Source: Anaerolineae bacterium (GTDB taxonomy: Bacteria > Chloroflexota > Anaerolineae > Epilineales > JAHCIE01). From it: DNA of 64,000 nucleotides. Shown one piece after another: positions 2,770 to 56,256 of this stretch. The notes beneath the pieces are model-generated. The model had not been told where the DNA came from. It saw only the letters and a list, made by a program, of their open reading frames with translations, and searched no databases. The number at the start of each line of letters is the position of its first letter. Position 1 is the first letter of the stretch. The stretch is from positions 109-64,108 of the forward strand of contig JAXLWJ010000031.1 of assembly GCA_046328535.1 (NCBI GenBank), written 5' to 3'. The position numbers and the translations under genes are program-made.

Positions 2770-3015
2770 TCAGTCTTGGTAGACATCTTTACGGTGACGG
2801 ATACGAGTGAGGAGGATGAGCAGGATGTCATCGTGGATTTCATAGATGACACGGTAGTCACCAACGCGGACGCGATAGAGGTTGGCCCGCCCCTGAAGTT
2901 TGATGACACCTGGATGGCGTGGGTTCTCCACAAGAAGGTCAATGGCCGCCCTGACTCGCCGTTTTGCGTCTGTGGGCAGGCCGCGAAATTCCTTAGCTGC
3001 GGAGTTCAGTAACTC
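2770..3015 (-). pseudogene. RelE/ParE-family toxin gene, 5' end severed by IS3 insertion
   Basis: ...AELLNSAAKEFRGLPTDAKRRVRAAIDLLVENPRHPGVIKLQGRANLYRVRVGDYRVIYEIHDDILLILLTRIRHRKDVY is a typical RelE/ParE fold sequence; first 5 codons incl. GTG start lie at 4274-4291 on the other side of the IS. Confidence 0.8.
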
Positions 3016-3088
3016 TGACCTTGCATCGGAATAGTGGAGACGGAAAGAACTGGATATACTTCCGACCACTAGAGAGGGTGCATGGACA

Positions 3089-3382
3089 ATGGGACAACAC
3101 AAGCGTTACTCACGCCAGTTCAAGCTGGATGCCCTGGAGTTGGTGCGAACCAGCGGCAAGACCCAGACAGAGATCGAGCGCGACCTGGGCTTGTACGGTG
3201 GCCAACTGAGCGACTGGAAGAAGCAGTTGGCTCAGGACGGCGACAGCGCCTTCCCCGGCAGCGGCAACGTCAAAGAGAGCGACGCCGAGGTGCGACGGCT
3301 GCGCCGCGAGAACGAGCTCCTGCGACGGGAGCGGGACATTCTCAAGAAAGCTATCGCGATCTTCTCGCACCCAAAAGGGTGA
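3089..3382 (+). CDS. IS3 transposase OrfA (HTH)
   Basis: MGQHKRYSRQFKLDALELVRTSGKTQTEIERDLGL...RRLRRENELLRRERDILKKA, typical IS3 OrfA HTH + leucine-zipper. Confidence 0.9.
   Translation: MGQHKRYSRQFKLDALELVRTSGKTQTEIERDLGLYGGQLSDWKKQLAQDGDSAFPGSGNVKESDAEVRRLRRENELLRRERDILKKAIAIFSHPKG
3370..3376 (+). other. programmed -1 ribosomal frameshift heptamer CCCAAAA (X XXY YYZ) joining OrfA to OrfB
   Basis: 0-frame C CCA AAA GGG TGA; -1 frame CCC AAA AGG continues into OrfB (..APKRVRYEFIAGH..); orfB frame is -1 relative to orfA. Confidence 0.7.
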
Positions 3383-4254
3383 GATATGAGTTCATCGCCG
3401 GCCACAGCCGCGCGTACACGGTGACGGAGCTGTGTCGAGTGCTGAAGGTGTCGCCGAGCGGGTACTACGCCTGGCGCACACGCGTGCCCAGTCGGCGCCA
3501 GCAGGCCAACGTCGAGCTGACCCAGCGCATTCGGCAAGTCTACCAGGACAGCCGTCAGACGTATGGAAGTCCGAGGGTGCATGCCGAACTCTCTGAGGCG
3601 GGAGTGGCCTGCGGCCGCAATCGTGTGGCGCGTCTGATGCGGGTGCACGGCTTGCGCGCCAAGCAAGCCACGCGCACGACGGTCACGACTGATAGCCGAC
3701 ATGCCTATCCGATCGCGCCCAACATCCTCAACCGCGCGTTTGAGGCGGCGGATCCAAACCGCACTTGGCTGGCCGATATCACATACATCGACACGGTCGA
3801 AGGCTGGCTGTACCTGGCTGTCGTGTTGGACGTCTTCTCGCGCATGATCGTCGGTTGGGCGACGGCCGACCATCTTGAGACGAGCTTGGTCATCGAGGCT
3901 CTCGACATGGCGCTGTTCCAACGTCGTCCGCGCGACGGTCTGCTGCATCATTCTGATCGCGGCAGCCAGTACGCCAGCGCCGATTATCAACAGCGCCTCA
4001 AGGACGGGCGGATCCGAGTGAGCATGAGCCGCACGGGCAACTGCTACGACAACGCGATGATGGAGAGCTTCTTCGGCACGCTTAAGAACGAGTGTGTGGA
4101 GGGTCGCTATGAAAGCCGTGCCATTGCGCGATGCCACATCTTCGAGTATATCGCGGCCTGGTACAACCCGCGCCGTCGGCACTCGGCCTTGGGCTATCTC
4201 AGCCCCGCGTGTTTCGAGCAGCGTCACGCTTCCAGGCTTTCTTCTCTCCACTAA
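3376..4254 (+). CDS. IS3 transposase OrfB (DDE/rve integrase core), expressed as OrfAB fusion
   Basis: WLADITYI (D), HHSDRGSQYAS (D), NCYDNAMMESFFGTLKNE (E) catalytic triad context; ALGYLSP C-terminal motif. Confidence 0.9.
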   Translation, partial: RVRYEFIAGHSRAYTVTELCRVLKVSPSGYYAWRTRVPSRRQQANVELTQRIRQVYQDSRQTYGSPRVHAELSEAGVACGRNRVARLMRVHGLRAKQATRTTVTTDSRHAYPIAPNILNRAFEAADPNRTWLADITYIDTVEGWLYLAVVLDVFSRMIVGWATADHLETSLVIEALDMALFQRRPRDGLLHHSDRGSQYASADYQQRLKDGRIRVSMSRTGNCYDNAMMESFFGTLKNECVEGRYESRAIARCHIFEYIAAWYNPRRRHSALGYLSPACFEQRHASRLSSLH

Positions 4255-4271
4255 TTCCATGCAAGGTCAAC

Positions 4272-4475
4272 TCAGCGCGGTAGCGTGCCACCGTTTGCCT
4301 CGTCGCGGTCCATTTCCGCTTTCAAGTCGTCCCAGGACATCGTTGGCTCGCCTTTGCGCGACTCCGAAACGATGATGTCGTAGATGTCCTCCCAGATGTC
4401 ACCCCACTCGGCCAGGCTGATAATGACGGCCGTGCGATGGCCCGCCTCATCCGTCACATACTGGATGCCTTTCAT
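4272..4475 (-). CDS. type II antitoxin (Phd/YefM/RelB-like) of the disrupted relBE-like operon
   Basis: MKGIQYVTDEAGHRTAVIISLAEWGDIWEDIYDIIVSE...; GGAAGGAGAG RBS 5 nt upstream of ATG at 4475; its TGA stop (4272-4274) overlaps the IS target duplication. Confidence 0.7.
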   Translation of the reverse strand: MKGIQYVTDEAGHRTAVIISLAEWGDIWEDIYDIIVSESRKGEPTMSWDDLKAEMDRDEANGGTLPR

Positions 4476-4517
4476 CAACCGCTCTCCTTCCCGAATGAAC
4501 TGGCACTTGTGTCCTAA

Positions 4518-4545
4518 ATCATAGCACATCCCGTTCGTTCGGCAA
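4518..4545 (-). promoter_or_regulatory. candidate sigma70-type promoter of the TA operon
   Basis: On minus strand TTGCCG - 16 nt - TATGAT about 40 nt upstream of antitoxin ATG. Confidence 0.4.
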
Positions 4546-5744: not shown

Positions 5745-5965
5745 CATCCCATTTCTGGCTCCCTCGCCCCGTGGATTCAAGGGCGGACAGATGAAAGGCG
5801 GCGGTGGCTCGTCCCCCACCAACCCCCGCCTCGCCCCGCTCGGCTCCCCCTTCCTCCCCCACCTGTGGGGGGAGGAAGGGGGTTGGGGGGATGGAGGAGG
5901 GACGTTGTGGCCCCACCCCAAAAGGGCCTGTCCGCCCTTGATCCCCCCTGGGAGAGGGCGGGCCG
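5745..5965. repeat. family-P C/G-run hairpin cluster
   Basis: e.g. CCCCCTTCCTCCCCC-acctgt-GGGGGGAGGAAGGGGG (5846-5882); segments shared with 40560-40640 (cccatttctggc.ccctc.ccc). Confidence 0.7.
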
Positions 5966-11746: not shown

Positions 11747-11758
11747 AAATGAGATAGT

Positions 11759-11832
11759 AACGCAAAGGCGCAGAGGCGCAAAGGAAGAACACAAAACTGA
11801 TCTTTCCCTTTGCGTCTTTGCGCCTTTGCGTT
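11759..11832. repeat. family-W word-stutter hairpin (terminator-like, 3' of SARP gene)
   Basis: AACGCAAAGGCGCAGAGGCGCAAAGGAAG ... CTTTCCCTTTGCGTCTTTGCGCCTTTGCGTT. Confidence 0.75.
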
Positions 11833-11993
11833 CCCATCCTCTTCGTCCCGATCCTCTTCGCCCCAGCAATTCATTACGCCGCCGCCAAATATCGCAACCC
11901 GCTCGTAAGCGCCCGCTAAGGGCCGCGTAAGTGTCGCCGCGTACTATGATGCTGTCGGGCAATACCTGAGCAGCAACTCAAAGGAGACGACTG

Positions 11994-14584: not shown

Positions 14585-16888
14585 TCAGCCCCCGTTCCGC
14601 GTCGCCTCGAACACCATCTCCGGCGTGATGGGCAGGTCGGGGACGCGCACGCCGATGGCGTCGCGCACCGCGTTGGCGATGGCCGCGCCCGGCGGGATGA
14701 TCGCCGGCTCACCGACGCCGCGCGCCCCGAATGGCCCGTGGGGCGACGGCACCTCAACGATGACCGCCTCCAGGTCCGGGGCGTGGGCGGCGCGGGGGAC
14801 AGCGTAGTCCATGAGGCTGCCGGTGAGAAGCTGGCCGGACTCATCGTGGACCATGCGCTCGTACAGGCTCCAGCCGATGCCCTGCACCGCGCCGCCGTGC
14901 ATCTGCCCCTCGATGGCCATCGGGTTGATGGCGCGGCCCACGTCCTGCACCGTAATCAGGCGCGTCACGCGCACCTCGCCCGTGTCCGCGTCCACCTCGA
15001 CCTCGGCCAGCGTGCCGGAGTAGCCCGGCGCCCGCTCCAGCTGCGCCGAGCGCCCGATGCCCGTGACCGGCTCGTAGCGCCCGCCGAACTGCATCGTCGC
15101 GTTCCCGATCTCCTGGAGCGATATCTTGCGCTCTGGGACGCCGCGCACCTGGACATGCCCATTGACCACGTCGAGGTCGTCCGGGTGAACCTCCAGCTTC
15201 TCGGCGGCCACGCTCAACAGGACGGTGCGGGCTTCCTGCGCCGCGCGCTGGACGGCCTGGCCGACGGTGTACGTAATCTTGCTGCCGCCGGAGCCGGCCG
15301 CGAACGGCGCGCTGTCGGTGTCGCCGGTCACGATGCGCACCTTGTCAATCGGCACGCCGAACACCTCGGCGGCGATAGCCGACATGGTCGTGTTCGTCCC
15401 GCTGATGTCCATCATCCCCAGATTCACCACCAGGGAGCCGTCGCGATCCATCTTGCACACCGCCGCCGCCGGCTCGGTCGCGCTCAGCCAGCCGCCGACC
15501 GCCGCCCCGACGCCGCGCCCCGTCCCGCCGCTCTTGTCCCGGTCGCGCCACAGGGGGTGCGCCAGCATCGTCTCGATGACGGTGCGCAGGCCGATCTTAG
15601 GCAGCGGCTGGCCGTTGGGCAGGAGGTCGCCCTCGTCCATGACGTTCTTGAGGCGCAGCTCAAGGGGGTCCATGCCCAACTCGCGCGCCAGGTCGTCCAT
15701 GTGCTGCTCCATCGTCAGCGTCGCCTGGGTCGCGCCCGGCCCGCGATACGCCCCGCCCGCCGCCTTGTGCGTCAGCACGTCCACCGCCTCGATCGCCAGG
15801 TGGGGGAAGCGATAGCAGCCGCCGAGCATCAGGCCCGCCAGGCTGCCCGGTGAGTTGGGGAAGCAGCCTGTGTCGAAGATGCAGCGCGCCTGGAGCGCCG
15901 TCAGCGTCCCGTCGCGCTTCGCCCCGACGCGGATCTCGAAGATGCTCTCCGGCGCGGGCGTGGCGGCCAGGAAGTCCTCGGAGCGGGTCAGGGCCAGGCG
16001 CACCGGACGGTTCAACACGAGGGCGGCGGCGGCGGTGAGGGGCTGGAAGACGGCGAACTTCGCGCCAAACGCCCCGCCGACCGTCGTCCCGACGACCTTG
16101 ACCGCCTCCTCCGGCAGCCCGACGATGTCGGCGACGGCGCGGCGCGCGCCGAAGATCGTCTGGGTCGCCGTCCACACGGTCAGGCCGTCGCCGAGCGGGT
16201 CCGGCGCGGCGACGGTGACGTGCGGCTCCAGGTACGCCTGGTAGATGCGGGGCGTGGTGTACGTGCGCTCCAGGATGACGTCGGCCTCGGCGAACCCCTG
16301 CGCCACATCGCCGCGCTTGAAGTGACTGGCCGAGACGATGTTGGTGTGTTCGCGGGGGGCGTCGGTATCGCCGGTTGGCGCCGCGCCGTGGGCCGCCAGC
16401 TCCTCCGACTCCGTCGGCAGGCCGGTGGGCCAGACGAGGGGCGCGCCCTTCTCCAGCGCGGCGCGGGCATCCACCACGGCGTCGAGCGCCTCGTAGTCCA
16501 CCTCGACCGCGTCCACGCCGTCCTCGGCGGCGGCCTCGCTCTCGGCGACGACGGCGGCCACGGGCTGCCCACGGAACAGAACGCGCTCGTGAGCCAGCAT
16601 GGCCTGGGCGCGGGAGCGGGGGCGGCGGCCGCGCGGCGGCAGGTCGGCGGCGGTCAAGACGGCGACGACGCCGGGGATGGCGAGGGCGGCGTCACGGCTG
16701 ATGCCCAGGATGCGGGCGTGGGCGTAGGGGCTGAGGACGAGGCGCATGTGGAGCATGCCGGGCAGGGTCAGGTCGGTGCCGAAGCGCGTCTTGCCCGTCA
16801 CCTTCTCCCGCCCGTCCTGCATCTTGTGGGGCTTGCCAATGGTGTGCATCTGGTCGTGGCTGCGAGTCTCGTAACCTGGCATTGTCAC
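14585..16888 (-). CDS. xanthine dehydrogenase/aldehyde oxidase-family molybdopterin-binding large subunit
   Basis: 767 aa; GKTRFGTDL, a/b-hammerhead and MoCo-binding regions (GGAFGAK, GSGGSKITY, GVGEPAIIP). Confidence 0.9.
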   Translation of the reverse strand: MTMPGYETRSHDQMHTIGKPHKMQDGREKVTGKTRFGTDLTLPGMLHMRLVLSPYAHARILGISRDAALAIPGVVAVLTAADLPPRGRRPRSRAQAMLAHERVLFRGQPVAAVVAESEAAAEDGVDAVEVDYEALDAVVDARAALEKGAPLVWPTGLPTESEELAAHGAAPTGDTDAPREHTNIVSASHFKRGDVAQGFAEADVILERTYTTPRIYQAYLEPHVTVAAPDPLGDGLTVWTATQTIFGARRAVADIVGLPEEAVKVVGTTVGGAFGAKFAVFQPLTAAAALVLNRPVRLALTRSEDFLAATPAPESIFEIRVGAKRDGTLTALQARCIFDTGCFPNSPGSLAGLMLGGCYRFPHLAIEAVDVLTHKAAGGAYRGPGATQATLTMEQHMDDLARELGMDPLELRLKNVMDEGDLLPNGQPLPKIGLRTVIETMLAHPLWRDRDKSGGTGRGVGAAVGGWLSATEPAAAVCKMDRDGSLVVNLGMMDISGTNTTMSAIAAEVFGVPIDKVRIVTGDTDSAPFAAGSGGSKITYTVGQAVQRAAQEARTVLLSVAAEKLEVHPDDLDVVNGHVQVRGVPERKISLQEIGNATMQFGGRYEPVTGIGRSAQLERAPGYSGTLAEVEVDADTGEVRVTRLITVQDVGRAINPMAIEGQMHGGAVQGIGWSLYERMVHDESGQLLTGSLMDYAVPRAAHAPDLEAVIVEVPSPHGPFGARGVGEPAIIPPGAAIANAVRDAIGVRVPDLPITPEMVFEATRNGG

Positions 16889-22596: not shown

Positions 22597-23025
22597 CTAC
22601 AAATCCGGCGCGGTGATGCCGTCGCCCTGGAGCAGCACGTACATCGGCACGTTGTCGCCCTTCCACGTGTCCACGCCGGAGCGAAAGATGCCCATGAGCG
22701 TGCGCCAGTTGCCGGGGTGCTGGCGGGCGAACTTGTCAGCGTCGGTGTAGAGGATGACGTAGCCGGGCGCTTTCGCCCACCCCAGATCGCGGATCGCCTC
22801 CTCGAATGCGTCCCAGTTGGCCGCGACGTAGCTCGGAAAGCCCATCGCCTGGCTGGCGGTCTTGAGAAACGTCGCCTTGTCGGTGACCTGGCTGCCGTCA
22901 ATCTCGAAGAGACGCCAGCCCTGCTCGGCGGCCGCGCGGCGCAGGGCATCGGGCGTGACCGCCTCGGGCAGGTTGTAGATGCCGGCCGGGCGCCGACCGG
23001 AGAACATGGCCGCCAGGTCGCTCAT
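22597..23025 (-). CDS. barstar-family RNase inhibitor
   Basis: ...IDGSQVTDKATFLKTASQAMGFPSYVAANWDAFEEAIRDL...: barstar core (G.NWDAl.D.l.dL). Confidence 0.8.
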   Translation of the reverse strand: MSDLAAMFSGRRPAGIYNLPEAVTPDALRRAAAEQGWRLFEIDGSQVTDKATFLKTASQAMGFPSYVAANWDAFEEAIRDLGWAKAPGYVILYTDADKFARQHPGNWRTLMGIFRSGVDTWKGDNVPMYVLLQGDGITAPDL

Positions 23026-23555
23026 TTGACTACCCTCACAAATGTGTCGTAGTGATCGTCGGTGTAGTAGATTTCGCCGTTCTTCCCGGTGATGATGCGC
23101 CGCGCGCCACGGTCCGCTGAGCCGGGCGTCTCGACGGTGTACTCGTGATAGTAGCCAGACGGCTTGCTCGGCAGCCGTCCCTCGCGGTTCTCGAACACGA
23201 TGCCGTCGCGCGAGTAGGGGAACGGCCCGCCCTTCTCGATGAGGGCGAGGGTCTTGCGCGCCTCCGGCGGCAGGTCATTGGGGCTGACGACCTTCAGCCC
23301 GTCCATCGTCTTGGCGGCGACGGTCGGGGTCGGGGCGGCCTGGCGCGTGGCGGTGGGTTTGGGCTTCGCCGCCTCGGGCGCGCTCGTGGCGGCGGCCTGG
23401 CCTATGGTGGCGACCGTCGGCGCGGCGACCCCCGTTGCTGTGTTTGCGCTCCCGCCGCCGCAGCCGACGGCGGCGACGACCAGCAAGAGCAGCAGGGTGA
23501 TGAGCGATGCCCGCCTGGCCCAGGTGAGGGCGGAGAGCGATGAGAGTCCAGGCAT
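23022..23555 (-). CDS. secreted guanyl-specific ribonuclease (barnase/RNase Sa family), lipoprotein-type signal
   Basis: Signal + VAAVGCGGGS lipobox; LPPEARKTLALIEKGGPFPYSRDGIVFENREGRLPSKPSGYYHEYTVETPG...RGARRII... matches RNase Sa/N1 catalytic core; 4-bp overlap with barstar gene. Confidence 0.85.
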   Translation of the reverse strand: MPGLSSLSALTWARRASLITLLLLLVVAAVGCGGGSANTATGVAAPTVATIGQAAATSAPEAAKPKPTATRQAAPTPTVAAKTMDGLKVVSPNDLPPEARKTLALIEKGGPFPYSRDGIVFENREGRLPSKPSGYYHEYTVETPGSADRGARRIITGKNGEIYYTDDHYDTFVRVVK

Positions 23556-23785
23556 GGGTCCTTCCTTAATCTGGATGTGACAGTCGCGGCAACACCGCAC
23601 GCTGACCTGAATTCCTCCAGGCTTTTGAATTGTATGTCAACGTGAACGATTCCTCAAGGCCGCGTGACATCGGGGTTCGGGTACGGTATAATGTGGGTGG
23701 CCGCACAGGAGCGGCCTGTATCGGTTGGCCGTCCCACCCACCACCACTGCGCCCTGCTGCCTGAAGGGAAGGAGGCTCGTTCACC

Positions 23786-24799
23786 ATGAAAGTCATCCGT
23801 TGGCTCGCGCCCCTCGTGGCGCTATTTTTGCTTTGCACTGCCGCCGCGCCGGGGCTTGTCTCCGCGCAAGGCTCGATTCAGATCAACCGGCCCGAAGCCG
23901 GCAGCGTCGTCACCTCGCCGCTGCGTGTCACCGGCTACACCGCCGCCCCCACCGACTCGATGAACTTCACCGTCGTCGGCGTCGTGTCGGGCCAGCTCGG
24001 ATCGGGCAGTTTCCCCGTCAAAAGCCCCTTTGATCCGCCGTTCGATTTCACCGGCACGGTCACGTTTGACACGCCGCAGCCCGGCGAAACGCTCATCATC
24101 ACGTTGTCGGGCGGCGACGGCTCGACCGCCTCGGTCAACGTGGTTGGGCCTGGGACAGCGCCGGTCGTCGCGCAGTCCATCGTGATTACCTCGCCCCCGA
24201 ACGGCACGCAGGTCGGCAGCCCGGTCACGCTCACCGGCTTCACCACGAGCTTCCCGCCCGGCGGCCTGCTCAACTTCGCCATCACGAGCGCAGCCGGCGT
24301 TCCCCTCGGCCAGGGCGTGTTCCCGGTGCAGCCGGCAGGCGCTGGCTCCACGTGGGCGGCCTCGCTCCAGTTCCAGGCGCCGGCCGGCGGCGGAGACATC
24401 ACGGCGACGGTGTTCCAGACGAACCCGGCGACCGGGCAGACCGTCGCCAGCTCCGCCGTGGCGCTGACCACTGAGGCCCCGGCGGCCGGCCAGGTCATCG
24501 TCATCACGTCGCCGCCGCCTGGCGCCACGGTCGGCAGCCCGATGACCGTGACCGGCTTCACGACCCAGTACCCGGTGAACGGCGTGCTGGCCTTCGTCGT
24601 GCGTCAGGCGAACGGCAATATCATCGGCAGCGGGACGTTCCCGGTGACACCCCTGGGAGGCGGCTCGACGTTCGTCGGCTCCGTCACCTTCGCCGTCCCG
24701 GCGACGGGCCAACCCCTCACCGTGACATTGGCCGACTACAACTTCGCGGCGGCGCAGGTCGTCGCCCGCACCGATCTGCCCGTCACGACAGCGCGCTAG
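23786..24799 (+). CDS. secreted protein with 3 Gmad2-type Ig-like repeats
   Basis: Signal peptide; three about 100-aa repeats I.I..P..G..V.SP..VTG.T......L.F......G. Confidence 0.7.
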   Translation: MKVIRWLAPLVALFLLCTAAAPGLVSAQGSIQINRPEAGSVVTSPLRVTGYTAAPTDSMNFTVVGVVSGQLGSGSFPVKSPFDPPFDFTGTVTFDTPQPGETLIITLSGGDGSTASVNVVGPGTAPVVAQSIVITSPPNGTQVGSPVTLTGFTTSFPPGGLLNFAITSAAGVPLGQGVFPVQPAGAGSTWAASLQFQAPAGGGDITATVFQTNPATGQTVASSAVALTTEAPAAGQVIVITSPPPGATVGSPMTVTGFTTQYPVNGVLAFVVRQANGNIIGSGTFPVTPLGGGSTFVGSVTFAVPATGQPLTVTLADYNFAAAQVVARTDLPVTTAR

Positions 24800-24977
24800 T
24801 GCAAGGACAACGGACCTGATAGGCTAGCCAGGCTCGCCTGACCGTAGAACGGTCAGGCTACGGCGTGCAAGCCTGAGAGGCTACCTCTCAGCCCCTCGGG
24901 CTTCCATCCAGTAGCGCGACGCTTCGAGCGTCGCGCGGGCGCACGATGCCGAATATGTCCTCTGACTATGCGCTAGG
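24797..24977 (+). repeat. family-S structured element, copy A (candidate ncRNA/MITE)
   Basis: Starts at the TAG stop of the upstream gene; multi-hairpin; about 88% similar by eye to copy B. Confidence 0.8.
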
Positions 24978-24990
24978 GGTTTATTGCACA

Positions 24991-25055
24991 GTCGCCCTGA
25001 GCGGAGCGAAGGGCCTCCGAAGCGTCGGGGGATGCTTGGCTCTGCTCAGCATGAC
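24991..25055. repeat. family-G double unit (GTC-stem-GAGCG.AGCGA-stem)
   Basis: GTCGCCCTGAGCGGAGCGAAGGGCC (+) and GATGCTTGGCTCTGCTCAGCATGAC (inverted unit). Confidence 0.75.
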
Positions 25056-26498: not shown

Positions 26499-26612
26499 AC
26501 CCTCGTCCCTCTCCCCCTTCCCCCTCTCCCAAGATGGGAGAGGGGGAAGATGAGGCCTCTTTCTGGCCCCCCTTCTCCCCGTGTGGGAGAAGGGGCGGGG
26601 GGATGAGGGACG
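26499..26612 (+). repeat. family-P bipartite hairpin element
   Basis: CTTCCCCCTCTCCC-aagat-GGGAGAGGGGGAAG (26517-26549) and CCCCTTCTCCC-cgtgt-GGGAGAAGGGG; colinear with 29849-29957. Confidence 0.75.
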
Positions 26613-28879: not shown

Positions 28880-29941
28880 ATGCGCGCCACTCGCCGCTTC
28901 CGCGCTGTCAATCAGATGTCCGTCCTCATCTTCCTCGCGCTGGGCGCCCTCCTGCCCCTCGTCGTCACCAGCCCCTACTGGCACAGCCTGTTCATCGTCA
29001 TCGGCCTGTATACGATGCTGGGCGTGGGCCTGGCCCTGCTCATGGGCTACGCCGGGCAGGTGTCGCTGGGGCAGCCGGCCTTCTACGGCCTGGGCGCGTA
29101 CACCGCCGCTATCCTCACCACGCGCCTGACCCTCAATCCGTGGCTGGCGCTCGTGGCCGGCATCGTCGTCGCCAGCCTCATGGCGGTGCTCATCGGCGTC
29201 CCGCTGTTCTACCTGCGCGGCCACGCCCTGGCGATGGGGACACTGGCCCTGACGCTCATTTTCTACGTCCTGGTCAACGAGACGGTGGCCCTCACCCTCG
29301 GCCCCAGCGGCATCACCGGCATTCCCACGCTGACCATCGGCCCCTTCGCCTTCGACAGTGACGTGCGCTACTACTACCTCGTCCTCGTCGCCGTGAGCGC
29401 GGTCCTGTTCGTCTCACTGCGCCTCGTCAACTCCCATATCGGCCGCGCCCTGCGCGCGATCCGCGACTCCGAGCTGGCCGCCGAGACGATGGGGGTGGAC
29501 ACGGCGCGGCACAAGCGCCTCGTCTTCATCATCGCCGCCGCCTTCGCGGGCCTGGCCGGTGGGCTGTACGCCTTCTATCTTCACTTCGTCAGCCCGCCGC
29601 CGTTCAGCTTCGGCCTGTCGGCGGTGCTGATTACGATGGTGGTGGTGGGGGGTCTCGCCAGTGTGTGGGGGTCTATGGTGGGGGTGGCCGCGGTCACGCT
29701 GCTCACCGAGGCGATCCGCTCGCTGGCCGCGCCGCTGGCCGGGCAGTCGTCGGCGGAGTATCAGATCGTGGTCTACGGGCTGCTGTTGATGGTAATCATG
29801 ATCTTCTTCCCCGACGGGCTGGGGCGGACGATCATTGACCGTGTCGCGGCCTCGTCCCTCTCCCCCGGCCCCTCTCCCAAAATGGGCGAGGGGGGGCCAG
29901 AGAGTTCCCCCCCTTCCTCCCGTGCTGGGAGGAAGGGGTAG
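28880..29941 (+). CDS. branched-chain amino-acid ABC permease (LivM-like) with repeat-derived C-terminal extension
   Basis: LGYAGQVSLGQPAFYGLGAY motif; last about 35 codons (..SLSPGPSPKMGEGGPESSPPSSRAGRKG) are encoded by a family-P element. Confidence 0.8.
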   Translation: MRATRRFRAVNQMSVLIFLALGALLPLVVTSPYWHSLFIVIGLYTMLGVGLALLMGYAGQVSLGQPAFYGLGAYTAAILTTRLTLNPWLALVAGIVVASLMAVLIGVPLFYLRGHALAMGTLALTLIFYVLVNETVALTLGPSGITGIPTLTIGPFAFDSDVRYYYLVLVAVSAVLFVSLRLVNSHIGRALRAIRDSELAAETMGVDTARHKRLVFIIAAAFAGLAGGLYAFYLHFVSPPPFSFGLSAVLITMVVVGGLASVWGSMVGVAAVTLLTEAIRSLAAPLAGQSSAEYQIVVYGLLLMVIMIFFPDGLGRTIIDRVAASSLSPGPSPKMGEGGPESSPPSSRAGRKG

Positions 29942-29957
29942 GGGGATGGAGGGCGGG
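29849..29957 (+). repeat. family-P bipartite hairpin element overlapping 3' end of LivM-like gene
   Basis: CCCCTCTCCC-aaaat-GGGCGAGGGGG and CCCCCTTCCTCCC-gtgct-GGGAGGAAGGGG. Confidence 0.75.
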
Positions 29958-32106: not shown

Positions 32107-32309
32107 GTGGCTCCACAGTACGCAGACCCCTGCCCACTCGGGTTCTCCCTGCTCAAAGGGACACGCAAAACCCGCCTTCCGTGTCATCCATGATGACAAG
32201 CCCAGGGCGACTGCGCGGCAGATACGCACTCAATCCCGTTTCACCTCTGTCGTTCGCGGCAATCTTTGCTGTACATGCCGCCGTGTGTCTTTTTGTGTCT
32301 TTTTCGGGC

Positions 32310-32337
32310 GCGACTCTCTGATCCGAGTCGCTATTTT
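32310..32337 (+). terminator. terminator-like hairpin + T-run in dnaA leader
   Basis: GCGACTC-tctgatcc-GAGTCGC followed by TATTTT; preceded by direct repeat GTGTCTTTTT x2. Confidence 0.35.
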
Positions 32338-32355
32338 GGCACAGAGTTAGGCTTT

Positions 32356-33729
32356 ATGAGCGCTATGTCCTCACATCAGACCCCCGACGAATTGTGGCAA
32401 GCCGCCCTGGGCGACCTCGAGCTGAGCGTCACGGCGGCGACGTATGACACATGGCTGCGGCCCACGCGCGCTATCGGCTTTGACGGCGACCTTCTGCTCA
32501 TCAGTACGCCCAATGCGTATGGCAAAGACTGGATTGAGAACCGCCTCGGCGCCGAAGTGCGCCGCGCCATCAGCCGCATCGCGTGCCGCCCCCTCGACTT
32601 CCGCGTCGTTGTCAGCGCCAGCAGCGCCAACGGGAACCGCCCCATCGAGTCGCGCTCGACCGGCGAGAACGGGAGTAAGCCTCACACCCCCAAGCCCAGC
32701 CAGGCGACCCTCACCCTCGAGCGTCCCGAGCTAAACGCCAAGTACACCTTCGCCAACTTCATCGTCGGCGACAGCAACAAACTCGCCGTGGCCGCCGCGA
32801 GCGCGGTCGCCGAAAGCCCCGCCAGCCGCTTCAACCCGCTGTTCCTCTACGGCGGGGTCGGGCTAGGCAAGACCCATCTCCTGCAAGCCATCGGCCACCA
32901 CCTGGCGGCCCGCCGCTACCGCGTGCGCTACGTGACGACCGAGACGTTCACGAACGACCTGGTCGGCGCGATCCGCACCCAGACCCAGGAAGAGTTCCGC
33001 AACCGCTACCGCCAGGTGGACGTCCTCCTGCTGGACGACATCCAGTTCCTCATCGGAAAGGAAATGACCCAGGAAGAGGTCTTCCACACGTTCAACGCCA
33101 TGCACGGCGCCAACCGCCAGATCGTCATCTCCAGCGACCGCCGGCCCCACGCTCTGATGCCCCTGGAAGCGCGCCTGCGCTCCCGCTTCGAGGCCGGTCT
33201 CGTCGCCGATATCCAGCCGCCGGACCTGGAGATGCGCATCGCCATCCTCAAGTCCCACGCCGAGGCGAAACACCTCGCCGTCTCGGACGACGTGCTCCAG
33301 ATCATCGCCCAGCGTGTGCAGAGCAACATCCGCGAGCTGGAGGGCGCGCTCGTGCAGGTCGTCGGCCGGACGCAGCTCACCCACGAACCGCTGACCGTTC
33401 AGACGGCGCAGCGCATCCTGAGCGCCGACGTCGCCCGGCCGGCGCCGGGCATGGACGTCATCCTCGAAGCTGTGGCCGAACACTACCGCGTCTCCCTGGA
33501 GGAGATGCTGAGCAGCAAGCGCACCCAGCGCATCGTCACCCCGCGCCACGTCGCCATGTACCTCATGCGCGAGGACGGGCGCGCGTCTCTACCCCAGATC
33601 GGGCTGAAGCTGCGCCGCGACCACACCACCGTGCTCCACGGCATCGAGCGAATCGCGCAGCAGGAGGAGACCAACGAGGCCTTGCGCAAGGACATCATCG
33701 CTATCCGCGAGCGCCTTTTCCGCCGCTGA
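32356..33729 (+). CDS. dnaA: chromosomal replication initiator protein DnaA
   Basis: N-term ..LWQAALGDLEL...TYDTWL; Walker A GGVGLGKTHLLQAIG; Walker B LLLDDIQF; sensor/Arg finger; C-term DNA-binding ..RHVAMYLMRE...SLPQIGLKLRRDHTTVLHG. Confidence 0.97.
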   Translation: MSAMSSHQTPDELWQAALGDLELSVTAATYDTWLRPTRAIGFDGDLLLISTPNAYGKDWIENRLGAEVRRAISRIACRPLDFRVVVSASSANGNRPIESRSTGENGSKPHTPKPSQATLTLERPELNAKYTFANFIVGDSNKLAVAAASAVAESPASRFNPLFLYGGVGLGKTHLLQAIGHHLAARRYRVRYVTTETFTNDLVGAIRTQTQEEFRNRYRQVDVLLLDDIQFLIGKEMTQEEVFHTFNAMHGANRQIVISSDRRPHALMPLEARLRSRFEAGLVADIQPPDLEMRIAILKSHAEAKHLAVSDDVLQIIAQRVQSNIRELEGALVQVVGRTQLTHEPLTVQTAQRILSADVARPAPGMDVILEAVAEHYRVSLEEMLSSKRTQRIVTPRHVAMYLMREDGRASLPQIGLKLRRDHTTVLHGIERIAQQEETNEALRKDIIAIRERLFRR

Positions 33730-34420: not shown

Positions 34421-35185
34421 ATGGACGTGAAACCCATTCGGCAGTTGAAACAAAACGTGACGGACGCGCCTAAGAAGAGCGTCAAGCTCGCGCAACACAC
34501 GGCTCACACAACCTTCCGCATCACGATCGGCTCTATCGTCACCACGGAGCAGGAATCGGTGCGCGCGGTTCGGGCGGTGATTCGGCGCGGTCGTGGTCAC
34601 CCGCCCGAGTGGCGCGGTCGTTGGCCGCGCCGCCTGCGCCGCCAGAGCGAGCGCGACTTCGAGAAGTACATCGAGGATTACGTCAGATACCTCCTTCAGA
34701 TCCGTCGGATGCCGACGCTCACTGAGGTCAAGCAGCTCGAAGAAACCATCGGCCGCCTCATGCAGGCCCTGGACCAGGTGATCGAGGAGAAGACGCGCGT
34801 CAAGGCGGAGCACGCCGGCGAGGTTCCGTCGGAGTGGCTCGAGGAGATGGCCGCCATGCTCGGCCGCAAGCCGCGCCCGAGCGACATCCCCGCGGCGCCG
34901 CCGCCCCTCGTCAGCGCGCCGCCGCCCGTCGGCGATCCTACGCCCGTTGCGGACGGCGCGCCGGCGCGCGCTGACGGGACAAGCGCCCAGGCGGCCAAGT
35001 CGGTCCCTCGCATGAAGGAGCCGTTCCCCGGCTACCGGACCCTGTCTGCGCCCCAGATTCTGATGCAGATACCCGCCCTGACGCCGCAGCAGCTGCGGCA
35101 CGTGCAGCAGTATGAAGAGCGGCACCATCGGCGCATCACCATCCTGCGCGCCGTCGAATCGCAGCTCGCCGCGCTGGGCGCGTAG
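34421..35185 (+). CDS. hypothetical protein adjacent to oriC
   Basis: 254-aa ORF, charged coiled-coil-like middle, Pro/Ala-rich linker, conserved-looking C-terminal PGYRTLSAPQILMQIPALTPQQLRHVQQYEERHHRRITILRAVESQL. Confidence 0.5.
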   Translation: MDVKPIRQLKQNVTDAPKKSVKLAQHTAHTTFRITIGSIVTTEQESVRAVRAVIRRGRGHPPEWRGRWPRRLRRQSERDFEKYIEDYVRYLLQIRRMPTLTEVKQLEETIGRLMQALDQVIEEKTRVKAEHAGEVPSEWLEEMAAMLGRKPRPSDIPAAPPPLVSAPPPVGDPTPVADGAPARADGTSAQAAKSVPRMKEPFPGYRTLSAPQILMQIPALTPQQLRHVQQYEERHHRRITILRAVESQLAALGA

Positions 35186-35211: not shown

Positions 35212-35392
35212 TAGTGCAAGGACACCGGACCTGATAGGCTATCCAGGCCCGCCTGCCCGTCGAACGGGCAGGCTACGACAGGCAAGCCTGAGAGGCTCCC
35301 TCTTAGCCCCTCGGGCTTCCATCCCGTAGCGCGACGCTCGAAGCGTCGCGCGGGCGCACGATGCCGAACATGTCCTCTGATTATGCATTAGG
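35212..35392 (+). repeat. family-S structured element, copy B
   Basis: 27 nt after stop of 34421-35185; colinear with copy A over full length. Confidence 0.8.
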
Positions 35393-35599
35393 AAGGCGTT
35401 CCGAGAAGAAAATCCAATAGACGCACAAGCCACCCGCCTCGAGTTCCGTGGCGGACCGGTCTGCCACATGACTCGGGACAGCGTGTCTCGGGGGGACAAC
35501 GATGCTGGCCGGGGGCGGATACCATCTAGAGCAGGTTCTCAGCCGCGCTGGTTGCAGCGATATGCGCGGAGGGGGAATCTGCTTTTTTTGCGTCCCGTG

Positions 35600-35621
35600 G
35601 AGACGCGCCATGGCGCGTCTC
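35600..35621. repeat. family-N perfect palindrome GAGACGCGCCATGGCGCGTCTC
   Basis: Second, longer copy at 60934-60965. Confidence 0.8.
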
Positions 35622-35636
35622 TACTAGGAGGATACC

Positions 35637-40481: not shown

Positions 40482-40770
40482 GGCATCCCTCCATCCCCCG
40501 GCCCTTCCTCCCAGAACGGGAGGAAGGGGGGTCAGAAAACTTCTCCCGCCCCTCTCCCATTTTGGTTCAAGGGTGGACAGGCGCGAGTTTGGGGCGATCT
40601 TGTCCCATTTCTGGCCCCCCTCTCCCTGTGGGAGAGGGTTGGGGTGAGGGTCTTGAAACCTGGCGAGCCTCTTAAGACCCTCACCCAGCCTCTCCCAGTG
40701 GGAGAGGGGCCAGACCTTTCCGCCCCTGAACCCATTTTGGGAGAGGGGACGGGGGTGAGGGACAAAGACG
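40482..40770. repeat. family-P hairpin cluster (at least 5 hairpins) between convergent genes
   Basis: 40486-40570 is an inverted copy of 29869-29955; GGGTGAGGGTCTT...AAGACCCTCACCC (40640-40686); CCTCTCCC-agt-GGGAGAGG etc. Confidence 0.75.
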
Positions 40771-40820: not shown

Positions 40821-41207
40821 TTATGAATATTCAGATGACGCCGTGAGTAGTGGAAGACGGTGAACTCGGATACGTCCGCGATGGACGGTGACAAGCGCGC
40901 CCGCGTCGAGGTCGGTTCCACACTGCTCGATGACGTACAGAAGTAAGGCGACTAAAGCAGGACCGCGCAAACTCTGGAGTCTGACTCGGATGACCGAGGG
41001 GGTAGTGTGACCTGCGAGAGCCATTAGGGTGTGGAAATCCGCGTCCAGCGTGACCACGACGCGAGTCTCTTCACGCGCCTTTGCCAGTATGACGATATCC
41101 TCAGCCGTTGCATAGCCTATATCGCCAACATGGACAGTATCAATACCCGCTTCGTTGAGCAGCCTCACCGCCGAACGTGGTAGACCCTGGTCAAGAAGCA
41201 GCTTCAT
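40821..41207 (-). CDS. DUF5615/Mut7-C-like PIN-fold putative toxin
   Basis: MKLLLDQGLPRSAVRLLNEAGIDTVHVGDIGYATAEDIVILAKAREETRVVVTLDADF. Confidence 0.65.
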   Translation of the reverse strand: MKLLLDQGLPRSAVRLLNEAGIDTVHVGDIGYATAEDIVILAKAREETRVVVTLDADFHTLMALAGHTTPSVIRVRLQSLRGPALVALLLYVIEQCGTDLDAGALVTVHRGRIRVHRLPLLTASSEYS

Positions 41208-41436
41208 ACGTCAGCGGGAGGTCAATGATTTCATCGTCGAGGGTGCTGGCGGCGTAAAGCAGGGCCTGGCGAATGTCCTCTTCTTCCAGCTCTGGGTATT
41301 CCTGAAACAGTACATCTCTCTCTGGATAGATAGCAAGCATCTCGACGACGCGACGGACCGTCAAACGCAGATTGCGCACGCAGGGTTGCCCGTTCAGGCG
41401 GGCGGGATTGACGGTAATTCGGTCAAGCGCCATCAT
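41191..41436 (-). CDS. DUF433-type putative antitoxin
   Basis: MMALDRITVNPARLNGQPCVRNLRLTVRRVVEMLA...EEDIRQALLYAA; overlaps downstream PIN-like gene. Confidence 0.65.
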   Translation of the reverse strand: MMALDRITVNPARLNGQPCVRNLRLTVRRVVEMLAIYPERDVLFQEYPELEEEDIRQALLYAASTLDDEIIDLPLTYEAAS

Positions 41437-41555
41437 GCCTCCTTCGTTCACGTCACACCCTCGAAGTATAGCCTGGTCCAGCCGCAGTGGCAACGCCCGC
41501 AGGAAACGTGTAGTAGCGACTTAGAATCTTAACTGTTTAGCGCAGCAATCGGATT

Positions 41556-41570
41556 GTCATGCTGAGCGAA
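41556..41570. repeat. family-G half unit (GTCATGCTGAGCGAA) abutting family-S copy C
   Basis: Unit is interrupted where copy C begins. Confidence 0.5.
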
Positions 41571-41721
41571 TGCGAGGCCCGCACGACGCTCGAAGCGTCG
41601 CGCTACTGGATGGAAGCCCAAGGGGCTGAGAGGGAGCCTCCCAGGCTTACACGTCGTAGCCTGCCCGTTCTACGGGCAGGCGGGCTTGGGTAGCCGACGA
41701 GGTCCGATGTCCTCGCACTAG
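41571..41721 (-). repeat. family-S structured element, copy C (shorter, inverted)
   Basis: Reverse complement aligns to A/B from CTAGTGC.AGGACA through GCGTCG.GCGGGC; about 87 nt 3' of the ATPase stop, sense to it. Confidence 0.75.
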
Positions 41722-41722
41722 G

Positions 41723-41748
41723 GGACGCTTCGCTCCGTTCAGCGTGAC
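41723..41748 (-). repeat. family-G unit GTC-ACGCT-GAACGGAGCGA-AGCGT-CC
   Basis: Read as reverse complement of ggacgcttcgctccgttcagcgtgac. Confidence 0.7.
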
Positions 41749-41808
41749 AGCCAGGAATTGCGGCGATAATTGGTGAAAGTTCATCAGTCGTCACTACATC
41801 GAATTCGG

Positions 41809-44202
41809 TTAGGCGTGGCGGGCGACGGGTTGCGCCGGCGCGCCGGCGGCGTTCGCCGGCGCGTGGAGCTTGGGCTTGTAGTTCAGCAGGCGCAGGCCGT
41901 TCAGGACGACGATGACCGTGCTGCCCTCGTGGCCGATGACGCCCAGCGGCAGCCCGATCACGCCGACGAACGTGGACAGGATGAGGATGACGATGACGCT
42001 CAGGGCGAAGGCGAGGTTCTGCTTGACCACCCGCGTCGCCTGCCGCCCCAGGGCGATGGCGTAGGGCAGCTTCATCAGGTCGTCGGCCATCAACACCACG
42101 TCGGCCGTCTCCAGCGCCACATCTGATCCCGCCGCGCCCATGGCGATGCCGACGGTGGCGGCGGCCAGGGCCGGCGCGTCGTTCACGCCGTCGCCGATGA
42201 CGGCGGCGTCCCCATACTGCGCCTGGAGCGCTTTGGCGAGGCGCACCTTGTCGGCGGGCAGCAGCTCGGCGTGGACCTCGTCCACGCCGGCCTGGCGGGC
42301 AATCGCTTCGGCGGCGCGGCGGTTGTCGCCGGTGAGCATGACGACCTTCTGCACGCCCAGCCCCTTGAGCGCCGCAATCGCGGCGACGGCCTGGGGCCGT
42401 ATCGTGTCGGCGACGGCGATGAGGCCGAGGGGCCGGTCCGCGCCGACGGCGACCACGGTCTTGCCCTGGCTCTCCAGGGTGGCGAGCTGCGCCAGCGCGC
42501 CTTCGCCGATGGTGGCCCCCTGCTCCGCCGCCAGGCCCGGCTTGCCGACCCAGACGACCCTGTCGTCCACCGTGCCGAGGATGCCCTGGCCGTGGAGCGC
42601 CTTGCCGTCCTTCGCGGCGGGGACCGGCAGGCCCCGGTCCCTGGCGGCATTGACGACGGCGGTGGCGATGGGATGCTCGGACAGGCCCTCGACGGCGGCG
42701 GCCAGGCGCAACACCTCGTCCTCGGTCGCGCCGTCGAACGCGACGATGTCCGTCACCTTCGGCCGGCCGTAGGTCAGCGTGCCGGTCTTGTCGAAGGCGA
42801 CGACCTTGATGCCGGCCGCGTTCTCCAGGTGCGCGCCGCCCTTGAACAGGATGCCGTTGCGCGCGCCGTTGGCGATGGCCGACAGGAACGACGCCGGCGT
42901 CGAGATGACCAGGGCGCACGGCGACGCCACGACCAGCAGGGTCATCGCGCGGTAGAAGGCCGTCGAGAAGTCCTGGCCCAGCACGAGCCAGGGAACGACG
43001 ATCATGATCGCCGTGACCGTGACCACACCCCAGGCGTACTTCTCCTCGAAGGTCTCGATGAACCGCTGCGTCGGCGACTTCTCGCTGCGCGCTTCCTCCA
43101 CCATCTGCACGATCTTCGCCAGGGTGGTGTCCTGGGCTGTCTTGGCGACGCGCACCTCGAGCGCGCCGGAGCCGTTCAAGGTCCCGGCGAATACCGTGTC
43201 GCCGGTGTCCTTGTCCACCGGGACGGACTCGCCGGTGATGGCGGCCTGGTCCACCGCCGACTGCCCGACGACGATGGTCCCGTCGGCCGGGATCTTCTCG
43301 CCGGGGCGGACGAGTACCATGTCGCCGACGGCGAGGGCCTCGACCGGGACGACGCGCTCCTCGCGGGCGCCGTTGACCAGGCTAATGCGCGTCGCCTGCT
43401 GCGGGCTGAGGTCCATCAGGGCGCGGATGGCGTTGCGCGTGCGGCCAAGGGCGTAGTGCTCCAGGGTGTTGCCCAGGGAGAAGAGGAACAGCAGGACTGC
43501 GCCCTCCTCCCAATGGTCAATGGCCGCCGCGCCGAGCGCCGCCGCCACCATCAGGAAGTCCACGTCGAGGGCCAGGGAGAAGAGCGCCTTGATGCCGTTC
43601 TGCGCGGCGTAGAAGCCACCGGCGATGTAGGAGCCGATGAAGAAGGCGAGGGCGAGGTTGTGGGGGCCGCCGAGCCACTGGGTGAGAAGTCCGCCGACCA
43701 GGCAGACGCCAGCCACCGCCGTCAGGAAGGCGTCGCGGTGCTTGACCCAGACCGGCTCCTCCTCCTCGTCTTTCGTGCGCACGTGGTAGCCCATGTCGGA
43801 GACCTTGCGCTCGATCTCGGCGGGGGTGACGTCGGCCACGTCGTATTGCACGCCGAGGACGCCGGCGGCGGGGTTGGCCGAGGCGTGGACGATGCCTGGC
43901 ACAGCCGTCAGGCCGTGCTCCAGGCGCAGGGCGCACTGGTCACACGTCAGCCCGGTGACGCCCATGGCGCACGCCTGGAACTGGCGGCCCAGGGTGATGC
44001 CGAGGTCATCGGCGACGCCCTCGACGGTCACCAGCGAGGCGCGCTCAGGGTCGTACTTCAGGGTCAGCACCGAGCGGCTGGCGTCGAGTTGGGCGCCGAG
44101 GATGCCGTCGTTGGTGGTCAGGGCCTCGATGAGGGCGTCGGCGCAGTAGTGCGGCTCTTGCTCCGGCATCGTGACCGGGATAGCGATTTCTTGCGTTTTC
44201 AC
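41809..44202 (-). CDS. heavy-metal translocating P1B-type ATPase (SPC / HEGST signature, N-terminal HMA domain)
   Basis: DKTGTLT, TGES, GDGVNDAPAL; TM motif VVASPCALVISTP; HEGSTVIVVLNGLRL; HMA with CDQC. Confidence 0.9.
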   Translation of the reverse strand: MKTQEIAIPVTMPEQEPHYCADALIEALTTNDGILGAQLDASRSVLTLKYDPERASLVTVEGVADDLGITLGRQFQACAMGVTGLTCDQCALRLEHGLTAVPGIVHASANPAAGVLGVQYDVADVTPAEIERKVSDMGYHVRTKDEEEEPVWVKHRDAFLTAVAGVCLVGGLLTQWLGGPHNLALAFFIGSYIAGGFYAAQNGIKALFSLALDVDFLMVAAALGAAAIDHWEEGAVLLFLFSLGNTLEHYALGRTRNAIRALMDLSPQQATRISLVNGAREERVVPVEALAVGDMVLVRPGEKIPADGTIVVGQSAVDQAAITGESVPVDKDTGDTVFAGTLNGSGALEVRVAKTAQDTTLAKIVQMVEEARSEKSPTQRFIETFEEKYAWGVVTVTAIMIVVPWLVLGQDFSTAFYRAMTLLVVASPCALVISTPASFLSAIANGARNGILFKGGAHLENAAGIKVVAFDKTGTLTYGRPKVTDIVAFDGATEDEVLRLAAAVEGLSEHPIATAVVNAARDRGLPVPAAKDGKALHGQGILGTVDDRVVWVGKPGLAAEQGATIGEGALAQLATLESQGKTVVAVGADRPLGLIAVADTIRPQAVAAIAALKGLGVQKVVMLTGDNRRAAEAIARQAGVDEVHAELLPADKVRLAKALQAQYGDAAVIGDGVNDAPALAAATVGIAMGAAGSDVALETADVVLMADDLMKLPYAIALGRQATRVVKQNLAFALSVIVILILSTFVGVIGLPLGVIGHEGSTVIVVLNGLRLLNYKPKLHAPANAAGAPAQPVARHA

Positions 44203-50624: not shown

Positions 50625-50760
50625 GTCATTGCGAGACCCCTATGGCTGTGGCGGCATGCGCCGACACAAGAAACGTCTAGGCTGTCACCCCGAGCGCAGC
50701 GAGGGGTCTGGACTGCGGTGCAGAGGCGGCCCAGATGCTTCGCCTTCGGCTCAGCATGAC
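50625..50760. repeat. family-G elements (truncated GTCATTGCGAG; double unit 50684-50708 / 50734-50760)
   Basis: GTCACCCCGAGCGCAGCGAGGGGTC ... GATGCTTCGCCTTCGGCTCAGCATGAC. Confidence 0.75.
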
Positions 50761-54774: not shown

Positions 54775-54841
54775 GTCACCCCGAACGCAGTGAGGGGTCT
54801 GGACTGCGGCGGCCCAGATGCTTCGCTTTGCTCAGCATGAC
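54775..54841. repeat. family-G double unit
   Basis: GTCACCCCGAACGCAGTGAGGGGTC ... GATGCTTCGCTTTGCTCAGCATGAC; near-identical layout to 50684-50760. Confidence 0.75.
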
Positions 54842-56226: not shown

Positions 56227-56256
56227 TCTTCGCCTCGATGAGGGAGGAGCGAAGGG

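Follow-up and report, generated by a model that had tools for sequence, protein, structure and literature searches.

What is the sequence that, within one short region of a bacterial genome, follows three different genes in nearly the same hairpin-rich form? The stretch in question (hereafter ‘the window’) comprises 64,000 nucleotides of an uncultured Anaerolineae bacterium of the phylum Chloroflexota (GenBank assembly GCA_046328535.1, contig JAXLWJ010000031.1, positions 109 to 64,108 of the forward strand). It is 67% G+C, contains dnaA at 32266–33729 and is rich in small palindromic repeat families. An earlier reading of the letters alone (the sequence-only reading) had singled out three copies of a multi-hairpin element, family S, and had proposed that it is either a mobile structured RNA of 3′ untranslated regions (3′ UTRs) or a miniature transposable element with inverted repeats (MITE). 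We find that S is a non-coding, multi-copy element that was recently inserted just 3′ of three genes, and we regard it, with a probability of roughly 0.72, as a lineage-specific, non-autonomous mobile repeat of MITE-like type. Empty sites, a start within a stop codon, flanking repeats, nesting and assembly breaks bear out the mobile half of the earlier proposal; its RNA-level half is suggestive only.

Three copies in the window

The three copies were found where they had first been placed and on the same strands (Table 1), with the same hairpins in the same order and the three quoted hairpins present letter for letter. Copies A and B are full length. For copy C the strand held and the extent (41571–41721) did not: homology is confined to a 144-nt core, the six bases 41571–41576 belong to the flank of another repeat, the 35-nt 3′ tail is missing, and the sequence past GCGGGC is unrelated. 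Identity in BLASTN alignments was 89.5% between A and B over 181 nt (E = 3e-66), and 88.9% and 86.8% for A/C and B/C, respectively, over 144 nt. A conserved 25-mer (GGGCTTCCATCCNGTAGCGCGACGC) and a 21-mer (TAGTGCRAGGACANCGGACCT) each match the window exactly three times, once per copy, where dinucleotide shuffles lead one to expect 0.00–0.01 matches. All three copies share a 5′ boundary, A and B also share a 3′ boundary, and beyond these sharp limits the flanks have no sequence in common. A profile hidden Markov model (nhmmer) and a covariance model, both built from the copies, found no further copy or fragment in the window.

The reported placement relative to stop codons was reproduced nearly to the base. 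Copy A sits on the TAG that ends its upstream open reading frame (ORF), copy B begins 27 nt past the stop at 35185, and copy C begins 88 nt past the ATPase stop codon (41809–41811). The copies are spaced 6–10 kb apart, with ordinary housekeeping genes between them; one is inverted, and all are in sense orientation between co-directional genes. This 3/3 orientation is not significant alone. A replication-strand cause of the orientation was considered and set aside, as GC skew tracks gene orientation and locates no origin; with an origin beside dnaA, A and B would belong to separate replichores despite their same orientation, so that such a cause is not favoured.

Every reading frame of S contains stops in at least one copy, and ARAGORN identified no tRNA or tmRNA. 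S had not been recognised as a known RNA family, and indeed the whole window gave no Rfam match at the gathering threshold; at E ≤ 10, the region around copy A gave only two chance matches, both to hairpin 3. Several known identities were rejected. An intrinsic terminator does not fit, with no terminator-like site in or beside any copy and with GGGC following hairpin 3; hammerhead or TPP-like motifs were ruled out on sequence and Rfam; and an integron attC site would require the core motifs RYYYAAC ... GTTRRRY, which are absent, while the wide spacing, the inverted copy and the intervening housekeeping genes also speak against it.

Related genomes lack S at the same sites

Two related loci from metagenome-assembled genomes (MAGs), L046 and L049, share gene order with the window, and their orthologues are 61–63% identical to those of the window; site A is covered in L046 only, sites B and C in both. 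L046 carries two adjacent Gmad2 genes and, further on, dnaA, a homologue of the 254-aa protein encoded upstream of copy B, a 170-aa gene, a von Willebrand factor A (VWA) protein and the ATPase, while L049 carries dnaA, the 254-aa homologue, a large protein and the ATPase. Neither nhmmer nor the covariance model detected S at the three sites of L046 or at sites B and C of L049. Empty sites of the kind that the sequence-only reading would have sought in related strains are thus found in other species; no same-species empty site was found in short-read samples.

The comparison is sharpest at site A. The L046 protein ends in ...DLPVTTGR followed by TAA and the window protein in ...DLPVTTAR followed by TAG, so that both stop at the same residue, and S opens with that TAG. 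Between this gene and the next, L046 has a spacer of 110 nt and the window one of 290 nt. At site B, a downstream non-coding block of ∼145 nt is conserved in three genomes, and only in the window does S lie between this block and the stop codon; L049 and a third relative, L053, have at this position a repeat resembling a second palindromic family, T, instead of S. At site C, the L046 ATPase gene is followed immediately by an intact 56-nt doublet of GTAG-tagged repetitive extragenic palindromic (REP) sequences (16150–16205). In the window the outer arms of the doublet (41786–41797 and 41510–41521) lie ∼265 nt apart and bracket a T-family palindrome that has the S core inside it. At site C, three repeats are nested one within the next.

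Junctions suggest a YTAG or TA target

The junctions of the two full copies read gcGCGCTAG|TGCAAGG ... CTATGCGCTAG|GGG for A and GAGTTAG|TGCAAGG ... TATGCATTAG|GAA for B. Copy A is flanked by direct repeats of CTAG, which can be extended to GCGCTAG, and copy B by direct repeats of TTAG; in each copy a flank-specific base matches on the two sides, which is what a 2–4-bp target duplication at TA or YTAG would give. The ends also form a candidate inverted repeat, the closing helix, that amounts in each full copy to 13 bp with one wobble. YTAG occurs at 62 sites in the 64 kb and is four times denser in non-coding DNA; CTAG is five-fold under-represented. A TA/YTAG target would by itself explain why copies lie in or just past stop codons. 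Moreover, since S begins with G after the TA, a TAA or TAG that receives it is turned back into a stop codon.

Pfam scans of 38 window ORFs revealed no Y1/RAYT (REP-associated tyrosine transposase) and no IS630 or IS5 transposase. An IS3-family insertion sequence (IS; Table 1) was considered as a parent of S and rejected: its ends share only TGCAAGG.CA with S, and ∼0.3 such matches are expected by chance. This element lies in a stretch of lower G+C and apparently splits small minus-strand ORFs at 2770–3102 and 4272–4529.

S beyond the window

Outside the NCBI MAG, exact copies of the window proteins were found only on short Logan contigs of SRR14234082–88 and SRR26348422. In seven samples, contigs have one of their ends within S, and this is so at all three loci: at S position 29 at site A (two samples) and S position 52 at site B (five samples), with contigs starting inside S at copy C. 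The three window copies do not explain the break positions at A and B, which implies further near-identical copies in the genome. S accounts for the short-read assembly breaks at these sites in this organism.

Broader searches returned no relative. Among 185,579 species-representative genomes there were 32 exact-pattern matches, all of them chance matches in coding genes, and JGI metagenomes gave three chance exact-pattern matches. IMG/VR held no genuine match, PLSDB plasmids and GenBank phages gave none by blastn, and a search with three of the six S frames against protein sets of 5.8 billion and 1.84 billion sequences yielded nothing save one repetitive 713-aa chance match.

Predicted fold and conservation of the stems

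In the predicted fold, the full copies are closed by a helix of TAGTGCA/TGCRYTA plus AGGACA/TGTCCT, copy B being arranged like copy A. Inside it, helix P2 and hairpins 1–3 abut with no unpaired bases between them, forming a predicted perfect four-way junction. The folding energy of the sense strand is −92 kcal/mol for A and −95 kcal/mol for B (z = −5.3 and −6.3 relative to shuffles). At the tip of the middle hairpin, the pairing CUGAGAGG/CCUCUCAG described earlier is possible, but the energy model favours a mutually exclusive alternative, AAGCCUGAG/CUCGGGCUU plus GGCU/AGCC. The antisense strand also folds well as RNA (z = −4.0), its consensus fold energy is −72.9 kcal/mol versus −73.4 kcal/mol for the sense strand, and as DNA both strands have a z of approximately −4.3. 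In the tail-less copy C, linked changes at columns 7, 22 and 23 make a local 6-bp helix, and the arms of the surrounding T repeat supply a new closing helix.

Variation among the copies avoids the stems. Twenty-six of the 146 core columns vary, and these comprise 8 of 100 paired and 18 of 46 unpaired columns (Fisher p = 1.4e-5); the stems have therefore been kept, and the hairpins are under real constraint. The differences between copies had been described as compensatory, with every non-Watson–Crick pair G-U on the sense strand. One true double change is present (column 45/57, A-U in A and C-G in B and C), and the other changes are one-sided. Each one-sided stem change goes to or from G-U on the sense strand, in 5/5 cases in the core and, with two more in the closing helix between A and B, in 7/7 (two-sided binomial p = 0.06 and 0.016, respectively); one pair is disrupted, G.A in copy B at column 70/110. 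Paired cells make up 99.3% on the sense strand versus 91.3% on the antisense strand, where a sense G-U reads A.C. These figures suggest a sense-strand preference of the wobbles, which would also fit a single-stranded DNA intermediate just as well as an RNA. Covariation measures on the three sequences were not above shuffles (167/500). The hairpin 3 loop of copy A (TTCGA, 24923–24927) is the exact reverse complement of that of copy B (TCGAA, 35338–35342), on identical stems; an inversion of this sort happens at the DNA level and is what template switching at palindromes typically produces.

A model for the spread of family S

We believe that the best-supported account of these observations is the following. 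A transposase encoded elsewhere in the genome would move S to rare YTAG/TA sites, most of which, in a 67% G+C genome, would fall within stop codons or between genes, the loops of other palindromic repeats among them. Insertion into a TAA or TAG stop would recreate the stop and leave the upstream protein untouched. Because all copies are in sense orientation between co-directional genes, S is probably transcribed with the upstream gene, as a 3′ UTR or intercistronic part of its mRNA, and the transcript would fold into the very stable closing helix and the predicted four-way junction with its three hairpins. By analogy with REP sequences and bacterial interspersed mosaic elements (BIMEs), ERIC and Correia elements, such a structure would most likely act as a barrier to 3′–5′ exonucleases or as an RNase processing site. 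An RNA-level role of this sort, as 3′-UTR stabiliser or processing site, is plausible but unproven: the copies supply a single compensatory pair, their covariation falls short of significance with three sequences, and the antisense strand reaches a fold of equal quality. As to the kind of transposase, we infer that a DDE cut-and-paste enzyme duplicating YTAG or TA is the leading candidate, at slightly under even odds, with a single-strand mechanism of HUH/RAYT type a serious, if less favoured, rival.

Several points weigh against this account. The empty sites stem from other species, at ∼62% protein identity, none from the same species, and S is present in every population sampled. In the two full copies the flanking TAG/YTAG cannot be told apart from the inverted repeat, which leaves a target-site duplication unproven, and the direct repeat at B is just 4 nt. 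The terminal inverted repeat is itself weak, its 7 + 6 bp being split by a 7-nt bulge, and there is none at the 3′ end of copy C. No transposase with S-like ends was found in the window, where the sole insertion sequence is the IS3-family element with its unrelated 25-bp ends. The strong conservation of internal stems is unexpected if only the termini matter to a DDE transposase. Neither a promoter-like site nor a U-tract terminator-like site occurs in any copy. Finally, the analysis covered three copies, too few to establish family size, orientation bias or a target consensus.

Alternative explanations

The conservation of the stems raises the possibility that S is primarily a functional structured RNA under RNA-level selection (a cis-acting 3′-UTR or intercistronic module, a small RNA or a protein-binding scaffold) and that its dispersal is secondary. 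The sense orientation of all three copies, the uniformly G-U direction of the one-sided stem changes, the compensatory pair, the much lower conservation of loops than of stems, the compact junction with z below −5 and the way in which copy C keeps its pairing without the tail would all be accounted for. However, covariation does not exceed that of shuffled alignments, the antisense consensus fold is equally stable, and neither promoter nor terminator is present. S is absent beside the same genes in relatives and so is not needed for their regulation, and neither Rfam, the translated-frame protein searches nor the exact-pattern DNA scans yielded a relative. Stems can also be kept by selection for mobility or by self-templated palindrome repair, and events of this kind in the DNA do occur here, as the inverted loop of B relative to A demonstrates. 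We therefore consider this explanation unlikely, if the best placed of the alternatives.

A second alternative, to which we assign a rather low probability, would make S a REP-cluster or REPIN-like element moved as single-stranded DNA by an HUH tyrosine transposase (a RAYT or an IS200/IS605-type TnpA). Hairpins 1 and 3 would then be GTAG-tagged palindromes placed tail to tail around a structured spacer, and the G.T wobbles would mark the DNA strand handled by the enzyme. CTAC does follow hairpin 1 and GTAG does precede hairpin 3, a tag that among 37 perfect hairpins of the window is found in S and one other family only. The genome possesses classical GTAG REP doublets (family U, 56033–56087, and the L046 doublet at site C), the stems are conserved with a strand-specific wobble asymmetry, and YTAG at the left flank and right end would also fit the target and cleavage tetranucleotide of IS200/IS605-type elements. 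But the last base of each tag sits in a stem, and the GTA and TAC triplets form pairs with one another at the foot of hairpin 2, which makes the two tags interdependent (chance ∼0.03–0.06). No stand-alone hairpin 1 or hairpin 3 exists in the 64-kb window, and the repeated unit runs 39 nt past hairpin 1 and 41 nt past hairpin 3. HUH/RAYT enzymes make no target duplication, whereas the flank repeats of A and B match and their flank-specific base co-varies (C/C and T/T). The Pfam scans described above also revealed no Y1 transposase gene in the window.

It is doubtful, though conceivable, that S represents an undescribed class of structured RNA, defined by the closing helix and perfect four-way junction, whose stems are selected on the sense transcript and which has spread as a portable 3′-UTR module, for instance as an exonuclease-resistant cap, a platform for docking a protein or RNase, or a guide-like RNA serving the enzyme that mobilises it. 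Were this true, mobility would be more than selfish, its role being to spread a function. Most improbable is that a single local sequence gave rise to the copies by ordinary segmental duplication or gene conversion and that they are immobile and functionless: all lie inside 17 kb and the public collections searched contain no other, but their flanks share nothing past the sharp boundaries, one is inverted, each has a different intergenic context, one is nested in another repeat, assembly graphs break in S where additional copies are needed, and 10–13% divergence with conserved stems is unlike recent local duplication.

Neighbouring repeats and genes

The positions of family S, its predicted structural parts and the principal features around it are collected in Table 1.

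Table 1. Family S copies, structural parts of copy A, upstream genes and associated repeats, in window coordinates.
Feature	Position	Strand	Remarks
Family S copy A	24797–24977	+	Full length, 181 nt; opens with the TAG stop of the Gmad2-domain gene
Family S copy B	35212–35392	+	Full length, 181 nt
Family S copy C	41577–41720	−	Core only, columns 1–144; without the 3′ 35-nt tail
Family S end sequences			TGCAAGGACA ... TGTCCT
Copy A closing helix/terminal inverted repeat, 5′ arm	24797–24809	+	TAGTGCA + AGGACA; pairs with 24956–24975 (minimum free energy fold)
Copy A closing helix/inverted repeat, 3′ arm	24956–24977	+	TGTCCT...TGCGCTA, ends CTAG(G)
Copy A core four-way junction	24832–24940	+	RNAalifold consensus structure, perfect stems
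Copy A P2, GCUC/GGGC	24832–24835 with 24937–24940	+	Consensus fold; GCYC/GGGC across copies
Copy A hairpin 1	24836–24858	+	Consensus fold
Copy A hairpin 2	24859–24913	+	Consensus fold
Copy A hairpin 3	24914–24936	+	Consensus fold
Gene upstream of copy A	23786–24799	+	337 aa, Gmad2 Ig-like domain (Pfam)
Gene upstream of copy B	34421–35185	+	254 aa, follows dnaA, no Pfam family; NCBI: hypothetical protein U0641_15490
Gene upstream of copy C	41809–44202	−	Heavy-metal P-type ATPase
T-family palindromic repeat, left arm enclosing copy C	41721–41748	−	GTCACGCTGAACGGAGCGAAGCGTCCCC; arms pair in the locus fold
T-family repeat, right arm enclosing copy C	41556–41575	−	TCGCATTCGCTCAGCATGAC; shorter than other T copies
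Separate T-family repeat	24991–25055	+	13 nt downstream of copy A, not part of S
IS3-family insertion sequence	3016–4269		390-aa transposase, HTH_21 + rve; 25-bp inverted ends TGACCTTGCATCGGAATAGTGGAGA; ACTC direct repeat

Family T has the form GTCAYSCYGARCGSAGYGARG ... GATGCTTSGC..GCTCAGCATGAC with variable loops, and occurs additionally at 50683–50760 and 54775–54841, as well as in L049 (10778–10897) and L053 (1016–1041). One T loop of the window hosts S copy C, and the T copy of a relative carries a different insert of ∼57 nt. The T repeat beside copy A indicates that repeats of several families accumulate at the same intergenic sites. Family U consists of classical GTAG-tagged REP doublets (GTAGTGACGACTTCAGTCGT ... 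ACGACTAAAGTCGTTACTAC), found at 56033–56087, 56137–56190 and 56205–56230 in addition to the split arms around copy C; its doublets imply RAYT-type activity in this lineage. Further families of intergenic palindromic repeats occupy 5846–5882, 26517–26595, 29860–29953, 40502–40707, 35591–35624, 60934–60969 and 11753–11838, with the unit sequences CCCCTTCCTCCC..GGGAGGAAGGGG, CCCTCTCCCA..TGGGAGAGGG, GTAGAGACGCGCCATGGCGCGTCTCTAC and GCAAAGGCGCAGAGG.

The conserved block of ∼145 nt near site B lies between the 254-aa and 170-aa genes (35428–35575, plus strand, in the window; 10800–10960 in L046; 10915–11075 in L049). It contains the motifs CCGCCTCGGG..GGCGGACCGGTC..CTACCCGAGACAGCGTTTCTCGGGGG..CCGGGGGCGGATA..CTCAGCCGCGCTGG..GCGCGGAGGGGA, has no Rfam match and is a candidate leader or structured RNA. 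Near site C, a DUF433 antitoxin and a DUF5615/PIN-like toxin form a pair at 40821–41433 (minus strand) between the VWA gene and the ATPase gene, and a promoter-like site (TTGCCA-17-TATACT, 41493–41465) lies downstream of copy C and ahead of that pair. The pair is missing at this position in both relatives, which marks the 40.5–41.8-kb interval as an insertion hot spot. Just upstream of the Gmad2 gene pair near site A are a gene for a barnase-type ribonuclease and its barstar inhibitor (22597–23600, minus strand; Pfam families on Logan contig L001).

Comparison with known repeat families

Small mobile repeats carried in mRNAs are a known bacterial route to ready-made RNA structures at gene ends, and to our knowledge work on them has been confined almost entirely to Proteobacteria, Firmicutes and Cyanobacteria. 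Family S documents such a repeat in an uncultured member of the Anaerolineae, with a very clean stop-codon insertion, a triple nesting and an unusually elaborate fold with conserved stems. It can serve as a marker for strain typing and, should RNA-level constraint be borne out across the whole family, would be well suited to studying whether hosts domesticate such elements as 3′-UTR stabilisers.

Bacterial MITEs are typically shorter than 200 bp, have terminal inverted repeats and target duplications, and often lie at gene 3′ ends, where they are co-transcribed and alter mRNA stability; this has been described for ERIC, Correia and RUP elements, with long RNA folds (PMC3184786). Close to S in general character are the ERIC/IRU elements of Enterobacteriaceae and the RU-type elements, which are ∼127–170 bp long, non-coding, imperfectly palindromic, intergenic and often just 3′ of genes, and which are co-transcribed, the transcript taking on a long folded structure that alters the decay of the mRNA; ERIC-type elements also have TA at both termini (PMC3184786). 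There is no sequence similarity between the two, however, and ERIC forms one long imperfect hairpin whereas S forms a closing helix and a four-way junction with three hairpins. S also belongs to a different phylum and is without a known partner transposase.

The Correia (CREE/NEMIS) elements of Neisseria and the RUP elements of Streptococcus pneumoniae are likewise MITEs, of 100–160 bp, in 3′ UTRs and intercistronic regions, with an RNA form that is processed by RNase and alters transcript stability. Both duplicate TA on insertion. The terminal inverted repeats of Correia elements are clean and 26 bp long, and RUP corresponds to the ends of IS630-Spn1, whereas S has its weak, interrupted 7 + 6-bp repeat and no parent IS was found for it; in S, moreover, the internal stems are more conserved than the termini.

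REP, BIME and REPIN sequences resemble S, whose own tags are putative, in comprising G+C-rich, perfect, GTAG-tagged hairpins in inverted pairs with a spacer of 20–100 bp that is sometimes structured (PMC3733652). GTAG REP doublets are the hallmark of RAYT activity, and REP dimers, reported in Chloroflexi as well, include heterodimers and dimers embedded in longer palindromes (PMC3733652). Most of them are found downstream of a gene, where the neighbouring ORFs are co-directional or convergent (PMC3733652), and the genome that carries S has a classical GTAG doublet family. Unlike REP dimers, S has mutually unrelated hairpins, no single units in the window, a unit much larger than a dimer and flanks that resemble a target duplication.

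Mycobacterial interspersed repetitive units (MIRUs) are 46–101-bp tandem direct repeats with small ORFs; they are intercistronic and oriented with the operon, and their ends overlap the stop or start codons of their neighbours. S shares with them the intercistronic, operon-oriented position and, in copy A, the overlap with a stop codon, but is single-unit, dispersed and palindrome-rich. Taken with these systems, S is a structured miniature mobile repeat, MITE- or REP-cluster-like: a known sort of element, now documented for a phylum that has received little study, rather than a novel type of RNA gene.

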